IMG/VR virus record: IMGVR_UViG_3300030618_000005
Strand: one strand, 5' to 3'
Source of the DNA: a virus
Lineage: Duplodnaviria; Heunggongvirae; Uroviricota; Caudoviricetes
Length of the DNA: 14,764 nucleotides
The position numbers and the translations under genes were made by a program. Of this stretch, positions 4,273 to 14,764 are shown in pieces. How positions within the stretch are numbered: position 1 is the first letter of the stretch; each line of letters opens with the position of its first letter. Below the pieces are notes generated by a model. The model was not told the DNA's origin. It searched no databases and worked only from the letters and a program-made list of their open reading frames with translations.

Positions 4273-4630
4273 ACAGCTTGTTTCGTTTATCCGATCCTAC
4301 TCGGCCCGGATGACTATGCCTTGGCGTACCCAGTACGGCGGTGGCCGGTGGCGATGTCACATACTCAGCAGCGGAGCGAACCAACACATCATCGTCTTGG
4401 AACTTGCCCAGCTTCTTGTTGCACAACCAGCATAGGAGTCCTCGGATCAACCCGGTCTTGTGATCGTGATCGACCGCGAAGCCCTTGCTGAAGTCTGATT
4501 CAGGGCGGCGGCACATGGCACACTTCCCGCCCTGATGATTCCAGATTCGTTTGTACTCTGCCAGAGTGATGCAGTAGTGCTTCTGGAGGTAGGTATCCTT
4601 CGCCCTCTCTCGGGCAGTGTACGCTTTCAT
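4193..4630 (-). CDS. T4 endonuclease VII-like nuclease (Holliday junction resolvase/recombination endonuclease family), 145 aa
   Basis: YCITLAEY...QGGKCAMC...VDHDHKTGLIRGLLCWLCNKKLG is the endo VII Zn/His-Me signature; TAATG coupling to the primase-helicase stop. Confidence 0.92.
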   Translation of the reverse strand: MKAYTARERAKDTYLQKHYCITLAEYKRIWNHQGGKCAMCRRPESDFSKGFAVDHDHKTGLIRGLLCWLCNKKLGKFQDDDVLVRSAAEYVTSPPATAVLGTPRHSHPGRVGSDKRNKLCGITPRKKKTKGRSGSKGRATKAVRN

Positions 4631-6654
4631 TAGAAGACCACATCTCCCATCGGTACTTCGCCGGTATAGTCCTTCTTGAGGACGATGCCCAGATTAGCCA
4701 ACTGGTTTTCGTGACCCACGTTCTTGTTGGAGTCAGCCTTCATCTTTGCGATCTGGCCCTCGTTCTTCTCCATAAACGTACTGGTCTCCCCGTTGACGTG
4801 AAGCGTACAGTAGCCGCCACTCGAATAGCGTGATAGAGGCACGCCAGTAAGAACATCCTCACCGAAGGCAGCTTCCTGTTCCACATATCCGATCTTCTCG
4901 AAGTCGTCTGCACTAAGCTCTCCCAGCTTCGTACGGTGAAGGGTGATCGTGCAGTCGCAGTCCTTTGCGATCTGAGACGAACCATCCGTGTTATCCGATG
5001 AGACGATTGCCCCGGCCTTGATGCGGTTCGGCTGGAGAATGCGTACCAGCTTCACACCGTAGTCCTTGGCGATCTGACTCGTGATCTTCGATATCTGCGA
5101 GAGGTGCTGCGTTCTGTTGTCGTAGGGCGTTGAGTCTGCCAGACGATGAATGTTGTCGATACAAATCCACTTCGCACCATAGCGGCGGATCACGTCACGG
5201 ATCAGACCGTAGATGTCCTCGACCGACTTGTACTTGGGATAGCAGAAGTACAGATCACCCTCACGTGCTGCTGTGATAGCCTGTACAGTTGACCTCGCTT
5301 CCATGAAGGCGGCCTTGAGAGCTTCACCCTCTTCCACCGACTTCGGAATGTTGTCAGCTACCTGCCCAAGATAAGAGACCCACTTGCGTGCCATACGAGC
5401 GCGAGTCATCTCCAAGCAGATAAAAACCCCGTCCTCGCCGTATGCTGAAACCATGTGGTCCATCAGATTCAAGGCGAACGTAGTCTTTCCGATCTTCTCC
5501 GGTGCTAGGATATCGATCACGTCCCCATCTTCGAACCCTACCAGCTTGTTCAGCGATGGCCATTGCGTCTTGTACTTTGGCTCTAATGTTGTCTTCCCCT
5601 CAAGTTCGTCGTAGAACTCCTGCATGGAGTCTTTAGAGGACGCTACACCGGCCACGTCGAAGAGCTGAGCTTCTTCCTTCAGCTTCTCGAATGCCTCAGG
5701 CGTTCCTCCGCCTTGTGTGAACCACTCGTTCAGGTCTTTGCCATTTCGCTGCTCACCCTTTTCGGTCGTAACCTGAAAGTCCGGCAGAATAATCTTCCAG
5801 CACTTCTCGATTCCAATGCGATTAGCGAGTTCCTGCGCAGCCTTCTGGCCCACCGCATCTTTGTCGTAGCAGACATAAACCTTGTCCAGTCTGTCGAGGG
5901 AATCGATCCACTCGGCCTTCTTGAAGTTTGCACCCGGCACGCCGCAGATGTTCTTTACGCCGTGGTCAATCGCGCAGATTACGTCCGGCTCACCCTCTAC
6001 GAACGTCGCCTCAGTGAGATTCTGATCGTTGAGGATTTCACCATTGTACAACGGAACCGGCCATCCTGTTGGCGAACTGAACGCCTTGGGTACCAAGTTC
6101 TCAGACAGTGGCATCGTCGGCAGCGTTCGATAGTGGCAGAACACTGTGTTGCCGTTGACCATGTACGGGTACACGAGCGCCCGCACTTCACCTACACCTC
6201 GGAAGAACCTCTTCTCCACAAGGCCCAGCTTCATCTTCCCGATAACGTCCATCGAGAAGCCACGACCGTTGACCAGATAGTCCAGAGCAGCTTCGTCGGC
6301 CAGCAGTGCTTCGTGGCACGCTTCCGTATCCGGCAGCTCCTCTTGCTTCTTATTCTCCCCAGAACTACCCGAGTCCCTGCGGCTCTCGATGTTCGCCTGT
6401 ACGATTCCTAAATGCTGCTTCAGTGTGTAAAGGTTACCACCCTTGCCACAGTGTACGCACCCATGCAGACCGTCCCTGTTTGTCTGCCCACTCCCGGCCC
6501 CATGAATCTCCATGCCTAAATGGAACCCGTCCTTCTTGCAATACGGGCATCTCTCGATTTCGATCTTGGGACTAGATACTTCTCTGTACTTCCAACCCTG
6601 ACTGACCACAAGCTGCATCGCCTGTGAGCCAGTGAACGCTTCCGGTATCTTCAC
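4630..6654 (-). CDS. Bifunctional DNA primase-helicase (Zn finger + TOPRIM + DnaB-like SF4 helicase; T7 gp4/Twinkle architecture), 674 aa
   Basis: CPYC...CVHC Zn finger; FVEGEPD and YDKDAVG TOPRIM motifs; APEKIGKT, CLEM, ICIDNIH, ILQPNR and GSSQIAKDCD SF4 motifs; GTG start with AGGAG RBS. Confidence 0.95.
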   Translation of the reverse strand: MKIPEAFTGSQAMQLVVSQGWKYREVSSPKIEIERCPYCKKDGFHLGMEIHGAGSGQTNRDGLHGCVHCGKGGNLYTLKQHLGIVQANIESRRDSGSSGENKKQEELPDTEACHEALLADEAALDYLVNGRGFSMDVIGKMKLGLVEKRFFRGVGEVRALVYPYMVNGNTVFCHYRTLPTMPLSENLVPKAFSSPTGWPVPLYNGEILNDQNLTEATFVEGEPDVICAIDHGVKNICGVPGANFKKAEWIDSLDRLDKVYVCYDKDAVGQKAAQELANRIGIEKCWKIILPDFQVTTEKGEQRNGKDLNEWFTQGGGTPEAFEKLKEEAQLFDVAGVASSKDSMQEFYDELEGKTTLEPKYKTQWPSLNKLVGFEDGDVIDILAPEKIGKTTFALNLMDHMVSAYGEDGVFICLEMTRARMARKWVSYLGQVADNIPKSVEEGEALKAAFMEARSTVQAITAAREGDLYFCYPKYKSVEDIYGLIRDVIRRYGAKWICIDNIHRLADSTPYDNRTQHLSQISKITSQIAKDYGVKLVRILQPNRIKAGAIVSSDNTDGSSQIAKDCDCTITLHRTKLGELSADDFEKIGYVEQEAAFGEDVLTGVPLSRYSSGGYCTLHVNGETSTFMEKNEGQIAKMKADSNKNVGHENQLANLGIVLKKDYTGEVPMGDVVF

Positions 6655-6716: not shown

Positions 6717-6745
6717 AGTGTAACACTAAAGCTTTAGGTTGTCAA
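6717..6745 (-). promoter_or_regulatory. Sigma70-type promoter for the primase-helicase operon
   Basis: Minus strand TTGACA-17 nt-TACACT, with TG at the extended -10 position; the -35 overlaps the upstream gene's stop codon; AT-rich intergenic gap. Confidence 0.85.
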
Positions 6746-7824
6746 CCGTTGTCATCGCGGAACTTACGGCCATTCTTCTTGTACGACGGGATGCACTTGT
6801 CTTTGTGTTGTTTCTTCTCGAAGGCCATCCGCTTCTGCACGGCCTTCTCCACGTTGGAGTCGAAGTTCTCGGTCATCTCCCGCATCGCCTCAGCAGCGTA
6901 CGCGATACATATATCCCGTAGGTCGTGACCTTGGATCACCGTCTTCTTGATGCCCCCGGCCTTCCAGAGCCAGTTGGCCACGTCCTCCAACTGTCCTTCG
7001 GAGTGCTCTAATATCTTCGGCTTCTTGTTGTAGAGGTACATCTCGTCGTGAAACATACCGTAATCTAGGTCGCTCATTGTCAAGGACTTACCATAGCCCA
7101 GACCGAACATCACGGACTTGTGTATGTCCTTTGTCAGCGGTGGCTTCCCTGAGGTCGTCTTCCCGAACCCCACCACGTCGTCCATGATGAGATGCTTGTA
7201 CTTGCCTGCATTCGGTCCTTGATTCATCAGCACGATGGGAGCGTTGTCTTTCAGTGCCGCCATCTTCGCAGCCCCATTAGGGTCCGTCTCGATAACCAGC
7301 GTGACCACTTCGGTGAATTTCTGGCACTTGGACGGGCAGTAAGAATAATCCTTAGTGGACGCTGTGGCACAACAGATGCCCCCGGTCACCTTTCCATCTT
7401 CGTGGGTCAAAATCTGAGTGTGCCTGCCCTTAGTGTGGCCGCAGATACACATCCGGGCAAGGTCTTGCTCCCAAGACAGGGCCTTAGGCTCAAAGGTCAT
7501 AGAAGCGTCTGTGGGGAAAGGGATAGTGGTAACCCCCGTCTCAGGGTCAACGACGCCTTGTACCCCCTCTGGAGCCTCAGGAAACGGCATCTCAGGTACA
7601 TCTATCTCAACCGGTAAGCCAGTACCCAAGTCAATCTCGGCGCAGGGGTTCAGCATTAGCTCCTGCTTCTTGGAGAAGCCGGGGCAAGAACACTGGCCGA
7701 GGGGCAGGTTTTCATCGGCGTCATGGTGAAGGTGTCCGCACTTGGAGTCGAAGTGGACCTTATACAGGTGACCGCAGTGCTCACAAAGGTCGTAGAGGCT
7801 CGTAGCCGGGTTACTGACACTCAT
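6742..7824 (-). CDS. Uncharacterised protein, 360 aa (start revised from 7896 to 7824): two CxxCGH/CxCGH...H...C...C Zn-like modules, a Pro-rich linker and a cluster of enzyme-like motifs
   Basis: CEHCGHLYKVH...C...CSCPGF and CICGHTKGRH...CC...CPSKCQKF; AGGGG before ATG 7824, 14-nt overlap with the upstream gene. Confidence 0.8.
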   Translation of the reverse strand: MSVSNPATSLYDLCEHCGHLYKVHFDSKCGHLHHDADENLPLGQCSCPGFSKKQELMLNPCAEIDLGTGLPVEIDVPEMPFPEAPEGVQGVVDPETGVTTIPFPTDASMTFEPKALSWEQDLARMCICGHTKGRHTQILTHEDGKVTGGICCATASTKDYSYCPSKCQKFTEVVTLVIETDPNGAAKMAALKDNAPIVLMNQGPNAGKYKHLIMDDVVGFGKTTSGKPPLTKDIHKSVMFGLGYGKSLTMSDLDYGMFHDEMYLYNKKPKILEHSEGQLEDVANWLWKAGGIKKTVIQGHDLRDICIAYAAEAMREMTENFDSNVEKAVQKRMAFEKKQHKDKCIPSYKKNGRKFRDDNG

Positions 7825-8005
7825 TGATAAACCCCTGAGGAACGCAGACAAGATCGCTGTCTCGGGCAGCCTGCAAGATCGTCTTGGCGCGGGCAATCCA
7901 GTTACCGCGCTCTACCAGCAGCTCTTTGAGTTCTTCGATGTATTGGCAGTCGGTGCTACCGGCCTGACGGTCGGCGGGGGCGGTCGTACACGATACGTTG
8001 TTCAT
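7811..8005 (-). CDS. Hypothetical protein, 64 aa
   Basis: Strong AAAGGAG RBS before ATG 8005. Confidence 0.8.
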   Translation of the reverse strand: MNNVSCTTAPADRQAGSTDCQYIEELKELLVERGNWIARAKTILQAARDSDLVCVPQGFINECQ

Positions 8006-8010
8006 GTGAC

Positions 8011-8027
8011 TCCTTTGCAGGTTAGTG
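8011..8027 (-). repeat. 17-bp direct repeat, copy 1 (CACTAACCTGCAAAGGA), containing the RBS of the 64-aa gene
   Basis: Identical to 9814-9830; 5 nt from the ATG in both copies. Confidence 0.9.
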
Positions 8028-8032
8028 TATCA
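8024..8032 (-). promoter_or_regulatory. Possible extended -10 promoter (TGnTACACT)
   Basis: TGATACACT; shares GTGWTACACTA with the primase promoter; no good -35. Confidence 0.45.
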
Positions 8033-8038
8033 CAGTTG

Positions 8039-8365
8039 TTAGTGAGTCACCGCGATGTAGTAATCACTGGCGTGGTATTTGTTCGGGTCGTCTCTCTTCA
8101 AACCCTCTAAGGACTTACGCTGTTTGGCAATGATGCGATCCTTCCACTTGCGGATGGACTCAGGGTTGAAGCCTTCTCCAAAGTCCTTCTCATTCTCGAT
8201 CTTGTTGATGTACTCCTGAGCGCCTTCATCGTAAGTGTTTCGACGCTGCCAGATGTAACCCGTAGGTGCAGGATGGTTGACAAGCTCGGCGGCCTTGTAC
8301 CTGATGGGGACTTCTTTGCCATCGGTGTCTACCGCGAAATTGGCGATGCTCTCAGCTTTACTCAT
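8039..8365 (-). CDS. Hypothetical protein, 108 aa (start revised from 8485 to 8365)
   Basis: AGAAAGG RBS between the tRNA CCA end and ATG 8365; the longer ORF-track version runs through the tRNA. Confidence 0.75.
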   Translation of the reverse strand: MSKAESIANFAVDTDGKEVPIRYKAAELVNHPAPTGYIWQRRNTYDEGAQEYINKIENEKDFGEGFNPESIRKWKDRIIAKQRKSLEGLKRDDPNKYHASDYYIAVTH

Positions 8366-8379
8366 AGGAACCTTTCTAA

Positions 8380-8454
8380 TGGCGGGCCGACTTCGACTCG
8401 AACGAAGAAGTTCTGCTTTGGAGGCAGACAGTTTACCAATTAGCTTATCAGCCC
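8380..8454 (-). tRNA. trnW: tRNA-Trp (anticodon CCA), 75 nt with encoded 3' CCA
   Basis: GGGCTGA TA AGCT AATTGGTA AACT G TCTGC CTCCAAA GCAGA ACTT CTTCG TTCGAGT CGAAG TCGGCCC G CCA: 7-bp acceptor stem (one G-U), 5-bp anticodon stem, TTCGA T-loop, G discriminator; one C12-A23 mismatch in the D-stem. Confidence 0.95.
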
Positions 8455-8523
8455 ATCGAGCCTGCGGGGTGCAGTCTTCATCCATTCTGTATAAGGCTTA
8501 TTGACTGCTACCCCGAGGACGAT
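8455..8523 (-). ncRNA. Putative structured RNA: long imperfect hairpin abutting the tRNA 5' end
   Basis: ATCG/CGAT, CCT/AGG, CGGGGT/ACCCCG and GCAGTC/GACTGC pair in nested order (19 bp) around a 26-nt loop. Confidence 0.55.
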
Positions 8524-8527
8524 CTCG

Positions 8528-9808
8528 TTACTTAGAGTCACCCTCTAAGAAAGTGTTCGACACGATTTTTAGCATCGCTCGGCCCAGTCCTCGAACCGTG
8601 CGCTCCTTGGTGGCCTTGATGACGACACCCTCGCGGATGTGGTTAGCACGGTAGACCCATGAAGGTCCATCCACCAGCGTCATGATCTTGTCTTTGTTGT
8701 ACGGCCCAAGGTACAGGAGGGGTGCCATCTCGATGCCGGGGTACGACAGCAGAGAGAAGCTAAAGGAACCGTAGTCCATCCACTCGCGTTGCGGGGTCAG
8801 GATGTCGAAGGCAAAGAACCGAACCTCACCCTCCACAGCATCGTCCTTCGGCCCGTACGGGAAGTTCTTCTGGGTAGGTGTCACCTCTCCGTAGATTGCA
8901 TGGCCGGGGTGCTCAAGCAGCCAGCGCGTCAGGTCTTCGTTCTGTTTGAGAACCTTGTGCCAGACGGTCGAACCGTTGTCGGCCTTCCACTGGTTACGGG
9001 AACCCACGAAGATTTCACCATCGATGGCGATGAACCGCGCATTCGATCCGTGGACCTTCTCAGTAACAACTACCTGCTCGTTCTCCTCGAACGTGTTCGG
9101 GTAGTTCTTGAAGCCCTCCACGTCGAAGACGGGGATGCTGAACGACACGTCTTTGGTCGTCTCACGCAACGAGCGCCCAGCGATGATACGCTTGATGAGA
9201 TGGAACCAGCCACGGAGAGTACGTGGGTACCGGAACTTTCGGCGCGGTGAGTTGGCACTCGACGCCTTGGCTCCCTGTGTGTTCTCGACGACATCGGGAT
9301 CGTAGTGTGTCACACCGATGATGTCGGAGATGTCCAGACCCGGTGCGTTCCAGAAAGGATCGACCGCGCCGGTCGCGCCGTCCGTCAGCTCAGTGAAGTC
9401 AGTGAGAGGAAGCAAGAGACCTTCGCTCCACTCCTTGCGGAACTTGCGTACCGTGATACGCCGTCTGTTCTCAGGCACCGTACCGTCGAGGCCGACGTAC
9501 GCTTCCCAGATGAACTTGAACGCCTCGGTTTGGGGCACGATGGAGTCTGGCTGGATGTAGACGCCCAGATCACCCGGATGGAACTGACCCTTACGCACGA
9601 CGACTTGGAAGCCATCGATCTGAACGAGGGAGAGGGAGTCGGCATTGGTGTGGGGCAGGAGGGCTTCGATCTTCACGATCTTGGCCTGATGGTTGGCCTT
9701 CTTCGGCTCGGGGATGTCGCGGCGGTCAAGGATAGTGTTGTACCCGAGAATGGTATTGGATGCACCTTCTCCAAGTACGGCGTCGAGGTCAGACTGGTTC
9801 GTAATCAT
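8528..9808 (-). CDS. ATP-dependent RNA ligase with N-terminal OB-fold (DRB0094/Rnl5 type), 426 aa (start revised from 9874 to 9808)
   Basis: OB domain PHTNADSLSLVQIDGFQVVVRKGQFHPGDLGVYIQPDS; nucleotidyltransferase motifs TEKVHGSN (I), IYGEV (III), FFAFDI (IIIa), REGVVIK (IV), MLKIVS (V); AAAGGA RBS 5 nt before ATG 9808. Confidence 0.92.
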   Translation of the reverse strand: MITNQSDLDAVLGEGASNTILGYNTILDRRDIPEPKKANHQAKIVKIEALLPHTNADSLSLVQIDGFQVVVRKGQFHPGDLGVYIQPDSIVPQTEAFKFIWEAYVGLDGTVPENRRRITVRKFRKEWSEGLLLPLTDFTELTDGATGAVDPFWNAPGLDISDIIGVTHYDPDVVENTQGAKASSANSPRRKFRYPRTLRGWFHLIKRIIAGRSLRETTKDVSFSIPVFDVEGFKNYPNTFEENEQVVVTEKVHGSNARFIAIDGEIFVGSRNQWKADNGSTVWHKVLKQNEDLTRWLLEHPGHAIYGEVTPTQKNFPYGPKDDAVEGEVRFFAFDILTPQREWMDYGSFSFSLLSYPGIEMAPLLYLGPYNKDKIMTLVDGPSWVYRANHIREGVVIKATKERTVRGLGRAMLKIVSNTFLEGDSK

Positions 9809-9813
9809 GGGCG

Positions 9814-9830
9814 TCCTTTGCAGGTTAGTG
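9814..9830 (-). repeat. 17-bp direct repeat, copy 2, containing the upstream gene's CAC TAA end and the RNA ligase RBS
   Basis: Identical to 8011-8027; the copies are 1803 bp apart. Confidence 0.9.
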
Positions 9831-10142
9831 GATCGTGGGGTTCTTAGGGCCGTGAAACATATCGTAGCCCACATCGGTGATGAGGAACATCTTGATGCCG
9901 CGCCCAGTCTTGAGCTTCGATATCGCTACGTCCTCTGCGTACTTGTTCGTGATGTCTTTGATGAATCCAAGCTTGACTAGATCGTCGCACTGTCCGAGTA
10001 CTTTTGTCAAGCGATCTTTTGTCTCTTGGTCATCCTCAGGGTTAGGCTCGACGGCAATCTTGATCGGACTCTTCCCGTTAGCAAGACTGCCCATCGCGTC
10101 GTTCTGTTCTTTCGAGAGTTCGTAAATCTTGGGCTTTGACAC
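9825..10142 (-). CDS. Hypothetical protein, possible winged-helix DNA-binding fold, 105 aa
   Basis: TAGTG coupling to the helicase stop; LVKLGFI...FLITDVG resembles the helix-wing end of winged-helix proteins (fold call is weak). Confidence 0.7.
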   Translation of the reverse strand: MSKPKIYELSKEQNDAMGSLANGKSPIKIAVEPNPEDDQETKDRLTKVLGQCDDLVKLGFIKDITNKYAEDVAISKLKTGRGIKMFLITDVGYDMFHGPKNPTIH

Positions 10143-11791
10143 TACTTTCTCGCTTTGGCCAGTCCAATCAGGCGGGAGGCCGCGCCGTTAGTTAGGTCGT
10201 GCGGTATAGCCCTTCCGGGGTAGTACCGCTTGATGGCTTTCTTCTGAGGCTCGGTCGCGGGCCTGTCGTGCCACCCGGCCTTTTGCTTCAGGAGATTCAA
10301 CGCTTCAGGTATCTTATCGTCAATGAGCTTGTCTGCGGCACGGAAGGCTTCCTCCATTGTGTCGCGCTCACCACGGTAACGCAATCCCTTTATATCACCG
10401 ATGACCTCCCACTTGTCAAGTAGATTCTGATCGATGGTGACTTTATCTTTCTGCCAGTACTCACCCGGCAGCTTCAGGATGTACCCACCTGTGGGTGACG
10501 TGTACCACGTAAGCTCTGAGTTGGTCTGCACCTCCTCAGGGAACTTCACTTCAAACAGGTTGACAGACTCGATATGAGATGTTATGGAGTCGATGTCTAC
10601 GAGCTTCGAGAAGTCGATCTGTGGATAGTCCTTCGCCGCCTCTTCCAATTGCCGTGCGGCCCATAGCACACCTCTGCCCTTTAGGTCAAGTGTGGTGGAG
10701 AGACCGAGAAGTGTCGGTAGGGTGAGAAGCGAGTTCTTCGCCGTCGAGTCAACCACGTCAATGACGATGCAATCGGTCTTCCCGATAAATAGTCTCGTCC
10801 CTCGACCGACCATTTGACAGTAGAGTACTCCCGATTTTGTGGGTCGAGCGAGTAGAATGCAGCCAATCGCCGGGTCGTCGTACCCCTCCGTGAGCACGCC
10901 ACAGTTGAGAAGGATTGTGGTCTCGCCACTCTGGTGCCTAGCGATCTTAGCCTTTCTCTCCGGGTCATCCCCCCAGATAGCTTCAGCCTTGACTCCATAG
11001 TATTTGAACATCGCCACCAAATCCAAGGCGTGCTGGATGTCAGCAGTGAAACCAATTGTCCTACGGTTTTGACCGTGGTCGAGCCATGCCTTGACGACGA
11101 GTTGATTTCGCTCGGGGTTGTTGATGATGGCTGCGAGAGAGCTGGCAGAGTAATCGCCATTGGAAGACTTGGCTTCTGAGAGGCTTGTGTTCGTCTTGAT
11201 TCGGATGCCATGAGGCTCGACGAGATAGCCCTCTTCAACCGCCCTGCGTAGGGAATACTCGTAAATAATTCGCTTGAAAATCTCTGCGAGAGCTTTGCCG
11301 TCAGCCCTCTGAGGAGTCGCGGTAACTCCAAGATGGAGTTTATGTGTATCAGGACGAAGAACATCAGCAAGAGAATAAACTGTCCGATAAGTGTCAGATG
11401 TTGCATGGTGTGCCTCGTCCGTGATGATCTTGTCGATGTTGTGCCAAGGGAACCGTTCCCCTCGGACAGAGTTCTTGTTGCCCAGTGTAGCGACCGATCC
11501 GACGATCACGTCAGCATTCACGTCGCCTATGTCGCCCGCCATCTCTTTCGTAACGGTAAGGTGTGGGTTCACCTCTTTGATCTTCTTGATGCCCTGATCG
11601 ATCAGCTCTTCGCGGTGCGCCAGCACAAGCATCTGGCCGGGGAGACGCGAACGAAATACGTCAGGGATGCCAGCGAAGGTCTGCGTCTTACCAGTCCCGG
11701 TCGCCGCACTGATGAGTTGTAAGTGAATCCCAGCATCGTAAGCCTTGATGCTGGCCTCGTGCATCTCAGATTGGTATGGTCGGTACGGCAT
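10142..11791 (-). CDS. Superfamily 2 DExH helicase (RadD/Irc3/ResIII-like), 549 aa
   Basis: AATGTGKT (I), DEAHH (II), TATP (III), LTEGYDDP (V), QMVGRGTR (VI); C-terminal PATEPQ...LTNGAASRLI tail. Confidence 0.95.
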   Translation of the reverse strand: MPYRPYQSEMHEASIKAYDAGIHLQLISAATGTGKTQTFAGIPDVFRSRLPGQMLVLAHREELIDQGIKKIKEVNPHLTVTKEMAGDIGDVNADVIVGSVATLGNKNSVRGERFPWHNIDKIITDEAHHATSDTYRTVYSLADVLRPDTHKLHLGVTATPQRADGKALAEIFKRIIYEYSLRRAVEEGYLVEPHGIRIKTNTSLSEAKSSNGDYSASSLAAIINNPERNQLVVKAWLDHGQNRRTIGFTADIQHALDLVAMFKYYGVKAEAIWGDDPERKAKIARHQSGETTILLNCGVLTEGYDDPAIGCILLARPTKSGVLYCQMVGRGTRLFIGKTDCIVIDVVDSTAKNSLLTLPTLLGLSTTLDLKGRGVLWAARQLEEAAKDYPQIDFSKLVDIDSITSHIESVNLFEVKFPEEVQTNSELTWYTSPTGGYILKLPGEYWQKDKVTIDQNLLDKWEVIGDIKGLRYRGERDTMEEAFRAADKLIDDKIPEALNLLKQKAGWHDRPATEPQKKAIKRYYPGRAIPHDLTNGAASRLIGLAKARK

Positions 11792-12099: not shown

Positions 12100-12372
12100 C
12101 TACCATGTTGGTTTCCATCCTTTACGCCTGATGAATTGTACCTCGGGCCTCGGGCCTGCGTCAAGTATCGTCCACTCGATGTCGAGGAAGCCGTCATGGT
12201 GAGCGCGGTGGCAGCCCGCACAGAGCGTCAGCAGGTTCCATAGATCGTCCGGGCCGCCGTGGGACTGGTAGATCAAATGATGCGGGTGGAGGCCGTTTCT
12301 GCTATTGCAGTGACGACACTTCCACCCGTCTCTTTGAAAGCAAGCTATTGATATGCGTCTAGGTAGTGGCAC
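12100..12372 (-). CDS. HNH endonuclease, 90 aa
   Basis: RDGWKCRHC...HHLIYQSHGGPDDLWNLLTLCAGCHRAHH is the HNH plus CxxC Zn signature. Confidence 0.93.
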   Translation of the reverse strand: MPLPRRISIACFQRDGWKCRHCNSRNGLHPHHLIYQSHGGPDDLWNLLTLCAGCHRAHHDGFLDIEWTILDAGPRPEVQFIRRKGWKPTW

Positions 12373-12751
12373 GTGTAGTGTATCCTACCAACCGGCCAGT
12401 GTTCTTCTCGACCTGCACAGCACGGTCATCGTACAGCTCAAGCATCCCATAGTCTTTCGTGCAAGTGACTTCGAGCGTGTACCCGATGTGTAGGGCACAC
12501 CACTCCTCGATAGCCTTGCGTGCGCGGCGGGCGTCTAGGTTGCGCTTGTGGAACTCTTTCTCGCTCACGTTGTCGGTGAGAGAGGGAGCGTACACGCGGG
12601 CCGTCATGATCTTTACCTGAAACCCGAACCTCAACCATGACTTGACACGCTCAACCATCAGTGGTATAGGTTCACCGATGTGTGTAGGACTAACAAACGT
12701 CTCATAGCGTGCCAAGGTGCCGTCCAAGTCTACCCCAATCCAAGGTCTCAT
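12359..12751 (-). CDS. HAD-superfamily phosphatase (capless, PNKP 3'-phosphatase-like), 130 aa
   Basis: WIGVDLDGTLA (motif I DxDGT), MTAR (II), TK (III), YDD (IV); TAATG coupling. Confidence 0.88.
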   Translation of the reverse strand: MRPWIGVDLDGTLARYETFVSPTHIGEPIPLMVERVKSWLRFGFQVKIMTARVYAPSLTDNVSEKEFHKRNLDARRARKAIEEWCALHIGYTLEVTCTKDYGMLELYDDRAVQVEKNTGRLVGYTTRATT

Positions 12752-14387: not shown

Positions 14388-14764
14388 TTATCCCTTTACT
14401 GGAAGCACCACTGGTTTGAGTTGGCGGGACTGGGAGGTAGCAGCACCAGAAACAGAACCCTGAGGTTGCGCCGTCGCCGCCTGTTCCTGCGCAGCTCTCA
14501 TCGCCTCGAACGCTCTGATCTTATCCTCAGTCTCCTTACGGTGAATGAGGAATGCAATCTGATCCCAATTGTTCTGATACGGGATGGCCTTGTCGTCGAT
14601 GTAGAAGTCCGCGCTCGGCTTGCCTTTGGACCCATCGTCGATGTGATCGAACGGGATGTCGTTGGCCTTCAGGAAGTCAACCATCGCCTTCACTTGCTTA
14701 CGCTCAAGCACTGGCTGCGCCGGGTCTCCGCCATAGATGTCGTAGTCCCAGTGGCAGCTACGGC
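14388..14764 (-). CDS. Second HAD-superfamily phosphatase, C-terminal part; start lies beyond the right edge
   Basis: Frame stays open past the ORF-track GTG to the window end (...RSCHWDYDIYGGDPAQPVLE...); GKPSADFYIDDKA matches HAD motifs III/IV; motif I is not visible. Confidence 0.7.
   Translation of the reverse strand, partial: RSCHWDYDIYGGDPAQPVLERKQVKAMVDFLKANDIPFDHIDDGSKGKPSADFYIDDKAIPYQNNWDQIAFLIHRKETEDKIRAFEAMRAAQEQAATAQPQGSVSGAATSQSRQLKPVVLPVKG

Follow-up and report, generated by a model that had tools for sequence, protein, structure and literature searches.

Exact 17-nt repeats around an RNA ligase and a tRNA-Trp gene in a peat phage: candidate start-associated junction elements beside a single-gene exchange slot

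What do two exact 17-nt direct repeats signify when they lie on either side of an RNA ligase gene, a hairpin, a tRNA-Trp gene and a small open reading frame (ORF)? This arrangement is found in a 14,764-nt stretch of DNA, hereafter named the window, which is the reverse strand of positions 29466-44229 of a 96,656-bp Caudoviricetes phage genome (IMG/VR record IMGVR_UViG_3300030618_000005; rated 100% complete; GC 54%). All genes discussed are located on the minus strand of the window. In transcription order, they are those of a DUF7352 protein, an SF2 helicase, p105, the RNA ligase, the hairpin, tRNA-Trp(CCA), p108, p64 and p384, followed by a primase/helicase, endonuclease VII and a RecA/UvsX-like recombinase. 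A preliminary description of the locus had proposed that the repeats bound an exchangeable anti-defence cassette. Here, we show that the repeat is real and non-random, and that the exchanged unit is a single-gene slot running from the tRNA to the right copy of the motif, not the block between the copies. We further propose, with a probability of about 0.55, that the 17-mers are two of three copies of a start-associated junction element, composed of a stop codon and a Shine-Dalgarno sequence, that also marks mosaic breakpoints.

The 17-mer, CACTAACCTGCAAAGGA, has two exact copies in the window, at 9830-9814 and 8027-8011 of the minus strand and 1803 bp apart. An ATG is positioned 5 nt past each of them, that of the ligase on the left (9808-9806) and that of the 64-aa ORF p64 on the right (8005-8003). 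The preliminary description was accurate on these points, as well as in assigning the CAC TAA of the left copy to the end of the upstream gene, the 105-aa ORF at 9825-10142. Not one of 200 dinucleotide shuffles gave two matches to the 17-mer, even when 3 mismatches were allowed. The shared register of the two copies extends over 20 of 21 nt (GATC or GATA plus the 17-mer), or 26 of 30 nt with the ATG included; the spacers differ at three of five positions and identity ends sharply at the Shine-Dalgarno sequence. In addition, a 15-nt core of the motif, CTAACCTGCAAAGGA, has a third copy in the genome, 20 kb away at position 14702; it comes after a hairpin, and the ATG found 7 nt further on opens an unrelated 105-aa ORF that encodes a basic protein (genome 14724). 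All three copies are on the gene strand, all carry AAAGGA, and they precede the ATG by 5, 5 and 7 nt. The next best start-proximal site in the genome matches 11 of 17 positions, and the motif family is not graded. The preliminary description had held that a 17-mer found before many genes would simply be a regulatory motif; such recurrence is seen weakly, as one extra gene preceded by the 15-nt core.

Logan contigs of independent runs bridge both copies, so that the arrangement is not an assembly artefact. Exact-motif scans retrieved the 15-mer in 29 IMG/VR loci and the 17-mer in 36 metagenome loci, none of which is related to the phage by tblastn or blastn. These are therefore chance matches and are uninformative on the existence of an empty site, that is, a locus lacking the block. 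Folding of the motif regions showed no significant RNA structure and no gain in stability over shuffled sequence. No sequence complementary to the motif was found, nor any promoter or terminator pattern at or near either copy in the window. A promoter role of the motif was ruled out, given the lack of a promoter pattern and a location only 5-7 nt before start codons.

The fate of the element between related phages was followed in L174, which is 88-91% identical to the window and is the sole relative at intermediate distance that shows conservation of the motif. Amino-acid identity with L174 is 94.5% for the helicase, 94% for p105, 91% for the ligase and 97% for both the primase and RecA, and falls to 80-82% for p64 and 59.5% for p384. 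At the left site, p105 of L174 is followed by the 17-mer without mismatch, and 7 nt have been inserted between the 17-mer and the ligase ATG. At the right site, it contains the 15-nt core and an identical 5-nt spacer before p64. There, the TAA of the core is the stop codon of a 67-aa ORF that is unrelated to p108 and has no homologue in the genome of the window phage. With a third-codon identity of 0.786 between L174 and the window, the neutral chance of finding two intact 15-mers is about 7e-4.

The same comparison delimits what has been exchanged. Homology between L174 and the window breaks at the ligase stop codon and resumes just before tRNA +1; a second break begins just past the tRNA 3' end and lasts until 5 nt short of the right motif copy. 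The slot swapped at this second break (window 8033-8377) is occupied by p108 here and by the unrelated 67-aa ORF in L174. Hence, the proposal that the repeat is a module-exchange sequence stands in part: the junction is conserved and the right copy is located at the breakpoint of the p108 swap, but the left copy is not a breakpoint. The expectation of different cargo between the same repeats was borne out for p108, whereas the ligase and tRNA-Trp are retained.

Between the ligase and the tRNA, the hairpin spacers of the two phages (window 8455-8527; L174:6097-6167) have no sequence similarity and are both long stable hairpins (-41.5 kcal/mol in L174; z -4.5 in each phage). Position and structure of this spacer are thus kept while its sequence is replaced. 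In the tRNA itself, compensatory changes of the T-stem indicate that tRNA-Trp is functional. Downstream, the divergence of p64 and p384 (window 6742-8005 as compared to L174:6480-7905) starts at the right motif copy and suggests either homologous replacement or fast evolution. L174 also shows more indels at gene boundaries of the same module, with a 168-aa gene not found in the window that separates the DUF7352 gene from the helicase (L174:2345-2851) and a longer endonuclease VII (215 aa vs 145 aa; L174:10017-10664).

How could one short sequence be both conserved and positioned at the edge of a swap? The element packs the TAA stop codon of the upstream gene and the AAAGGA Shine-Dalgarno sequence of the next gene into a unit placed 5-7 nt before the ATG. 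We infer that it is most likely a shared translation-initiation leader, kept intact by selection. Identical copies at gene boundaries would in turn offer short homology for recombination, and would in this way mark mosaic breakpoints.

Two more families of repeated ribosome-site leaders, of about 17-24 nt and with three copies each, are present at 5.4-9.3 kb of the genome. The copies of the first (17 nt, ending in ATG; genome 5461, 5912 and 6070) and of the other (19-24 nt, ending in AAGGAG; genome 8777, 9035 and 9317) precede consecutive small early genes. A promoter-like repeat containing TTGACA is found at genome 6471, 7183 and 15573. These further leaders, together with the repeated promoter-like sequence, argue that the re-use of short expression signals is habitual in this genome. 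The structural-gene half contains exact 16-18-nt direct repeats (62309/78312, 65218/70656, 62381/68597 and 61507/88547), in excess of the approximately 0.3 expected by chance for 17-mers.

Several observations weigh against a shared leader. With three copies, the family is small. Conservation is seen in one relative, L174, at the two copies of the window, and relatives at 65-70% helicase identity do not have the motif. Other regulatory intergenic DNA, for instance before the primase, is well conserved in L174 too, so that conservation of the motif argues for function generally and not for a specific one. The part of the element outside the Shine-Dalgarno sequence, CTAACCTGC, has no known binding partner. 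Finally, a one-off duplication followed by hitch-hiking could lie behind the motif copies.

This last idea leads to the alternative that survives best, which we nevertheless regard as unlikely: the repeat would be a functionless recombination scar. The right copy would have arisen once, by joining at a copy of the p105-end/ligase junction, and would persist by recency; the third copy would be similarly accidental. Such a history fits the coding status of the copies, as CAC TAA and the upstream GAT are coding in the left one, where they form the 3' end of p105, and non-coding in the right one. It also fits the sharp stop of identity at the Shine-Dalgarno sequence, with spacers already different, and the end of p108. 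This gene terminates with Thr-His-stop (ACT CAC TAA C), where its homologues carry a different tail after DYYIAV. Its last nucleotides thus correspond to a p105-type 3' end plus a partial copy of the motif, CACTAAC. These short matches suggest that p108 was once joined at a p105-type junction, and that the motif may have served as a recombination seam more than once; p108 itself shows no significant protein similarity to the p105 homologues. However, a scar would hardly leave the core intact at both L174 sites despite about 21% third-codon divergence and replacement of the adjacent DNA, and the three copies keep the same distance class to the ATG. In addition, the 8 nt that precede the right copy resemble the 3' end of the 67-aa ORF of L174 just as closely, which makes the reading of the right copy as a p105 fossil ambiguous and weakens it.

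Less probable again is that the 15-mer is the operator of a small regulon, by which a trans-acting factor of the phage or its host (a small RNA, a site-specific RNase, or an RNA-binding protein that represses or activates translation) would co-regulate the ligase, p64 and the basic 105-aa protein. The identical sequence before three unrelated genes and its conservation in L174 are compatible with an operator. So are the nine conserved nt upstream of the Shine-Dalgarno sequence, which have no pairing potential with it. The same question has been raised for the start-associated sequences (SAS) of mycobacteriophages (PMC3203893). Yet no candidate binding factor was identified, the sites are three only, and neither RNA structure nor a complementary sequence accompanies them.

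The contents of the block, as first described, were confirmed by Pfam, folding and ARAGORN/Rfam, and the features of the locus are collected in Table 1. p105, p108 and p64 belong to no Pfam or PHROG family, and protein-atlas searches for p108 and p105 were uninformative. An Rfam scan of the block recognized the tRNA only, leaving the hairpin without a family. Upstream of the helicase, a 90-aa HNH endonuclease ORF (12100-12372, minus strand) overlaps the neighbouring genes, and is called in only part of the public contigs despite at least 99.8% DNA identity.

Table 1 Features of the locus, in window coordinates.
Feature	Position	Strand	Description
SF2 DNA helicase	10142-11791	minus	Upstream anchor gene
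p105	9825-10142	minus	Conserved small protein; directly after the helicase or 1-3 small ORFs later
Left motif copy	9814-9830	minus	CAC TAA ends p105 (final codon and stop); AAAGGA is the ligase Shine-Dalgarno; register extends to 9834 (GATC)
RNA ligase, Rnl5-type (NgrRnl-like), 426 aa	8528-9808	minus	PF21189 1.2e-16; PF09414 7.2e-22; phrog_968
Hairpin	8455-8527	minus	Between ligase stop and tRNA +1; -29.7 kcal/mol, z -4.5; no U-tract
tRNA-Trp(CCA)	8380-8454	minus	ARAGORN; Rfam 52 bits; CCA end encoded; operon-embedded
p108, 108 aa	8039-8365	minus	Rare phage family; conserved N-terminal 45 residues and DYYIAV motif
Partial motif copy CACTAAC	8038-8044	minus	7 nt; gives last codon and stop of p108
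Right motif copy	8011-8027	minus	Non-coding; 5 nt before the p64 ATG; register extends to 8031 (GATA)
p64, 64 aa	7811-8005	minus	Small Cys-containing protein; starts the fast-diverging p64 and p384 segment
p384	6742-7896	minus	Called as 360 aa in public contigs
Primase/helicase (Toprim and DnaB_C)	4630-6654	minus	Downstream anchor of the variable slot

Inside the block, no sigma-70-like promoter or intrinsic terminator was found. Promoter-like sites of the minus strand are located at 12164-12135, upstream of the DUF7352 and helicase genes, and at 6745-6717, upstream of the primase. Terminator-like hits on the gene strand fall only in the anticodon arm of the tRNA and in the ligase coding sequence, and their total is not above that of shuffled sequence. 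Given the lack of a promoter or terminator inside the block, the tRNA is probably transcribed within the mRNA and cut from a polycistronic transcript. RNase P cleavage at the 5' end of the tRNA would then leave a ligase mRNA whose 3' end is capped by the hairpin. On the other side of the tRNA, the p108 ribosome site begins a few nt past the encoded CCA. The block and its flanks have a GC content of 0.51-0.60 and thus no compositional sign of recent import.

Whether the block travels as a whole can be judged from its history in more distant phages. Among cultured phages, the nearest are Tunturi_3 and Tunturi_4 of Tunturiibacter (Acidobacteriota; PMC11924767), and the window phage is abundant in peat metagenomes, with roughly 24 runs that contain it. 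A megablast search against GenBank phages gave no match, and an IMG/VR search with the single helicase sequence gave none either. An alignment-based IMG/VR search with the helicase, taken as the upstream anchor, gave 80 loci. The helicase-primase interval was compared in the loci that keep the order helicase, primase, RecA. An Rnl5-type ligase is present in this interval in Tunturi_3, L035, L037 and L039, and is not found there in Tunturi_4, L036, L040-L047 and L051; in L048 and L058 the ligase is at another place in the genome. Present, absent or moved among relatives, the ligase thus defines the helicase-primase interval as a variable slot. A p105 homologue is retained whether or not the ligase is present (L041, L058). 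In L038, a 134-aa ORF at the position of the ligase (L038:11460-11864) matches the N-terminal part of the ligase only (61% over 83 residues), and could be either a truncated ligase or a stand-alone OB domain.

Nearer relatives, with 65-70% helicase identity (L168-L173), give a more detailed view of the ligase locus. In L170, a 50-aa ORF stands between p105 and the ligase, and tRNA-Trp follows 20 nt past the ligase stop codon. L171 and L173 contain p105, the ligase, one ORF and tRNA-Trp; the ORF before the tRNA is HNH-like in L171, and an 84-aa ORF separates p105 from the ligase in L173. In L169 and L172, the ligase is followed by a gene resembling HNH/EndoVII-type homing endonucleases, without a tRNA. 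L168 has no ligase: the 373-nt gap after p105 holds a 47-nt remnant of the ligase 3' end, 83% identical, as well as the remnant of a decayed endonuclease. The ligase remnant argues that the gene was lost there by imprecise deletion. The homing-endonuclease-like genes that follow the ligase (L169:9405-9813, L171:9407-9754 and L172:9307-9839; remnant at L168:8271-8644) suggest that the ligase locus may be a landing site for homing endonucleases.

Overall, the ligase and tRNA-Trp are found together between helicase and primase in five lineages (the window, L174, L170, L171 and L173). The tRNA-Trp orthologues adjoin the ligase in L174 and L170, and lie one ORF downstream in L171 and L173. L170 and L171 have orthologues of both the p105 3' end and the junction; L169 and L039 have an orthologous p105 3' end. 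These p105 ends consist of an Ile or Thr codon, then His or Asn, the stop codon and then CC or GG. The L171 junction resembles the left junction of the window through to the ligase ATG. No comparable repeat flanking the ligase was found in L168-L173. An orthologous p105 3' junction, combined with the lack of a ligase-flanking repeat in these relatives, argues that the left motif copy is an old native junction and that the ligase and tRNA-Trp are an inherited pair, not a recent insertion. We conclude that the pair is vertically inherited, inside an operon leading from the helicase towards the primase, and not carried on a mobile cassette. The notion of an exchangeable whole block is therefore at odds with both the orthologous p105/ligase junction and the five lineages that hold ligase and tRNA-Trp together.

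Population data lead in the same direction. Proteins identical to p64 and p105 are listed in 91 and 52 collection blocks, respectively, of which the 23 and 24 longest contigs were read. These 47 contig reads come from partly overlapping sets, and hence represent at most 47 contigs. Each of them shares at least 99.8% identity with the window and shows the order p105, ligase, p108, p64. Identity then drops in steps, from the phage's own population to L174 and from there to relatives at about 70%. The empty site that the preliminary description had suggested looking for was found neither in the population contigs read nor in the relatives reached, where the loss of the ligase in L168 is imprecise and leaves a remnant. 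Four peat-metagenome runs compared to window 7600-10300 showed no joints or loose ends, in Logan contigs of depth 5-9 that are blind to rare excision.

The ligase itself bears on the anti-defence idea. Its 426 residues comprise an N-terminal OB domain (PF21189, residues 42-135) and a nucleotidyltransferase domain (PF09414, residues 244-416), without a C-terminal add-on. Its best relatives in the PDB are structures of NgrRnl (5COT and 6VT4, E about 1e-13). The domain order is that of the Rnl5 family, represented by Naegleria gruberi NgrRnl and Deinococcus DraRnl, and the lysine motif and motifs IV and V align: KVHG (motif I), YGEV and REGVVIK face KLDG, QGEI and REGLVFK of NgrRnl, within a weakly scoring stretch. 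In contrast with NgrRnl, the phage ligase has about 50 extra inter-domain residues and a low overall similarity. NgrRnl seals nicks in duplex RNA. To our knowledge, no biological role has been assigned to Rnl5-type ligases of phages. The block ligase does not match PF09511 and is thus not of the Rnl1 type, so that the parallel first drawn with the T4 RNA ligase does not hold for it. An Rnl1-type ligase has its own gene at genome 28117-29322, some 5 kb upstream of p105; this gene belongs to the core of the clade and is also found where the Rnl5 gene is missing. No match to an AAA_33 kinase (PF13671) or a PNK3P phosphatase (PF08645) was found in the genome. A 130-aa HAD-like ORF (window 12359-12751, minus strand) weakly matches phrog_415 'polynucleotide kinase' (E 1.6e-7), and its sole PDB match is marginal. 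It starts with a HAD-type DxDGT motif (GVDLDGTL), maps to the interval from the Rnl1-type ligase to the helicase, and could act as an end-healing phosphatase.

In light of these results, we consider it very unlikely that the ligase, hairpin, tRNA-Trp and p108 form an anti-defence cassette exchanged through the flanking repeats, in which RNA repair and a replacement tRNA would act against tRNA nucleases. The picture is attractive: exact direct repeats flank the block, their recombination would leave a seamless operon of p105 stop codon, ribosome site and p64, and the phage encodes a RecA/UvsX recombinase. The variable occurrence of the ligase among relatives and its linkage to tRNA-Trp in five lineages can also be read in this way. 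In addition, VapC toxins are documented to target tRNA-Trp(CCA) (PMC5175351), and phage tRNAs neutralise PARIS and retron effectors (PMC11464382, PMC11555353). Together, these precedents make a counter-defence role of the ligase and tRNA-Trp plausible by analogy. However, the left boundary of the supposed cassette is an ancestral junction, p108 alone was swapped with respect to the close relative, a third motif copy is located elsewhere in the genome, and the block is kept in all population contigs read. The T4-style tRNA-repair ligase, Rnl1, is a separate core gene, unaccompanied by a recognizable kinase or PNK3P end-healing enzyme. The anticodon loop of the tRNA, CUCCAAA, is what we take to be the usual loop of bacterial tRNA-Trp. 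As for p108, proposed as a cofactor, its homologues occur in other phage contigs without adjoining ligase or tRNA and thus give this role no contextual support. A transposon with target-site duplication was ruled out, as the block has neither transposase nor integrase and no terminal inverted repeats.

We likewise give little credence to a composite view in which ligase, hairpin and tRNA-Trp would be a conserved RNA module of Acidobacteria-type phages and the 15-nt leader the operator of a regulon comprising the ligase, p64 and the basic 105-aa protein; such a module could, for example, supply or reseal tRNA-Trp under VapC-like attack, or rejoin RNA after tRNA excision.

A start-associated junction element therefore remains our preferred explanation of the repeats. 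It provides a concrete case in which a short stop/ribosome-site junction may act at once as a conserved expression signal and as a seam where genes are swapped, in a barely studied group of peat and tundra-soil phages related to Acidobacteria phages. It also corrects the appealing, unsupported picture of a mobile anti-defence cassette. Since we know of no role for Rnl5-type ligases in phages, the linkage of ligase and tRNA-Trp through substantial divergence is a modest but new and useful lead.

The locus recalls several known systems. As in T4, with its Pnkp/Rnl1 pair, and in phages whose tRNAs neutralise PARIS and retrons, RNA ligases and tRNA genes are encoded by one phage, and here one ligase-tRNA pair is adjacent and co-inherited. 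Unlike the T4 Pnkp/Rnl1 repair of PrrC-cut tRNA-Lys, the ligase adjacent to the tRNA is not of the Rnl1 type, and no kinase/PNK3P enzyme was recognized. The element between the genes is closer to the SAS of Cluster K mycobacteriophages, of which 93 sites were described across six genomes (Pope et al. 2011; PMC3203893) and whose effect on translation initiation is unproven (PMC3203893). Both are short asymmetric repeats with a Shine-Dalgarno core, located a few nt before start codons that are mostly ATG (3-7 nt for SAS, 5-7 nt here). Both keep to a single orientation and to the non-structural part of the genome, sometimes include the upstream stop codon, and are kept between related phages before unrelated genes. 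In contrast, the present element has three copies as compared to 93, measures 15-17 nt instead of 13, and has a different sequence without GGG...CCC symmetry. No extended inverted-repeat partner is seen here, and the host lineage is Acidobacteria-type and not Mycobacterium.

With respect to recombination, the nearest counterparts are the mobile regulatory cassettes of T4-type phages known as PeSLs, which associate a strong sigma-70-like early promoter with a terminator stem-loop (PMC2839356, PMC4122927). Unlike PeSLs, our motif contains neither promoter nor terminator. The resemblance (Arbiol et al. 2010; Comeau et al. 2014) is in their genomic behaviour: in both cases, a repeated intergenic regulatory sequence lies in a variable (hyperplastic) region, at the breakpoints of indels and replacements between close relatives, and the genes between two neighbouring copies would be deleted or circularised by recombination.

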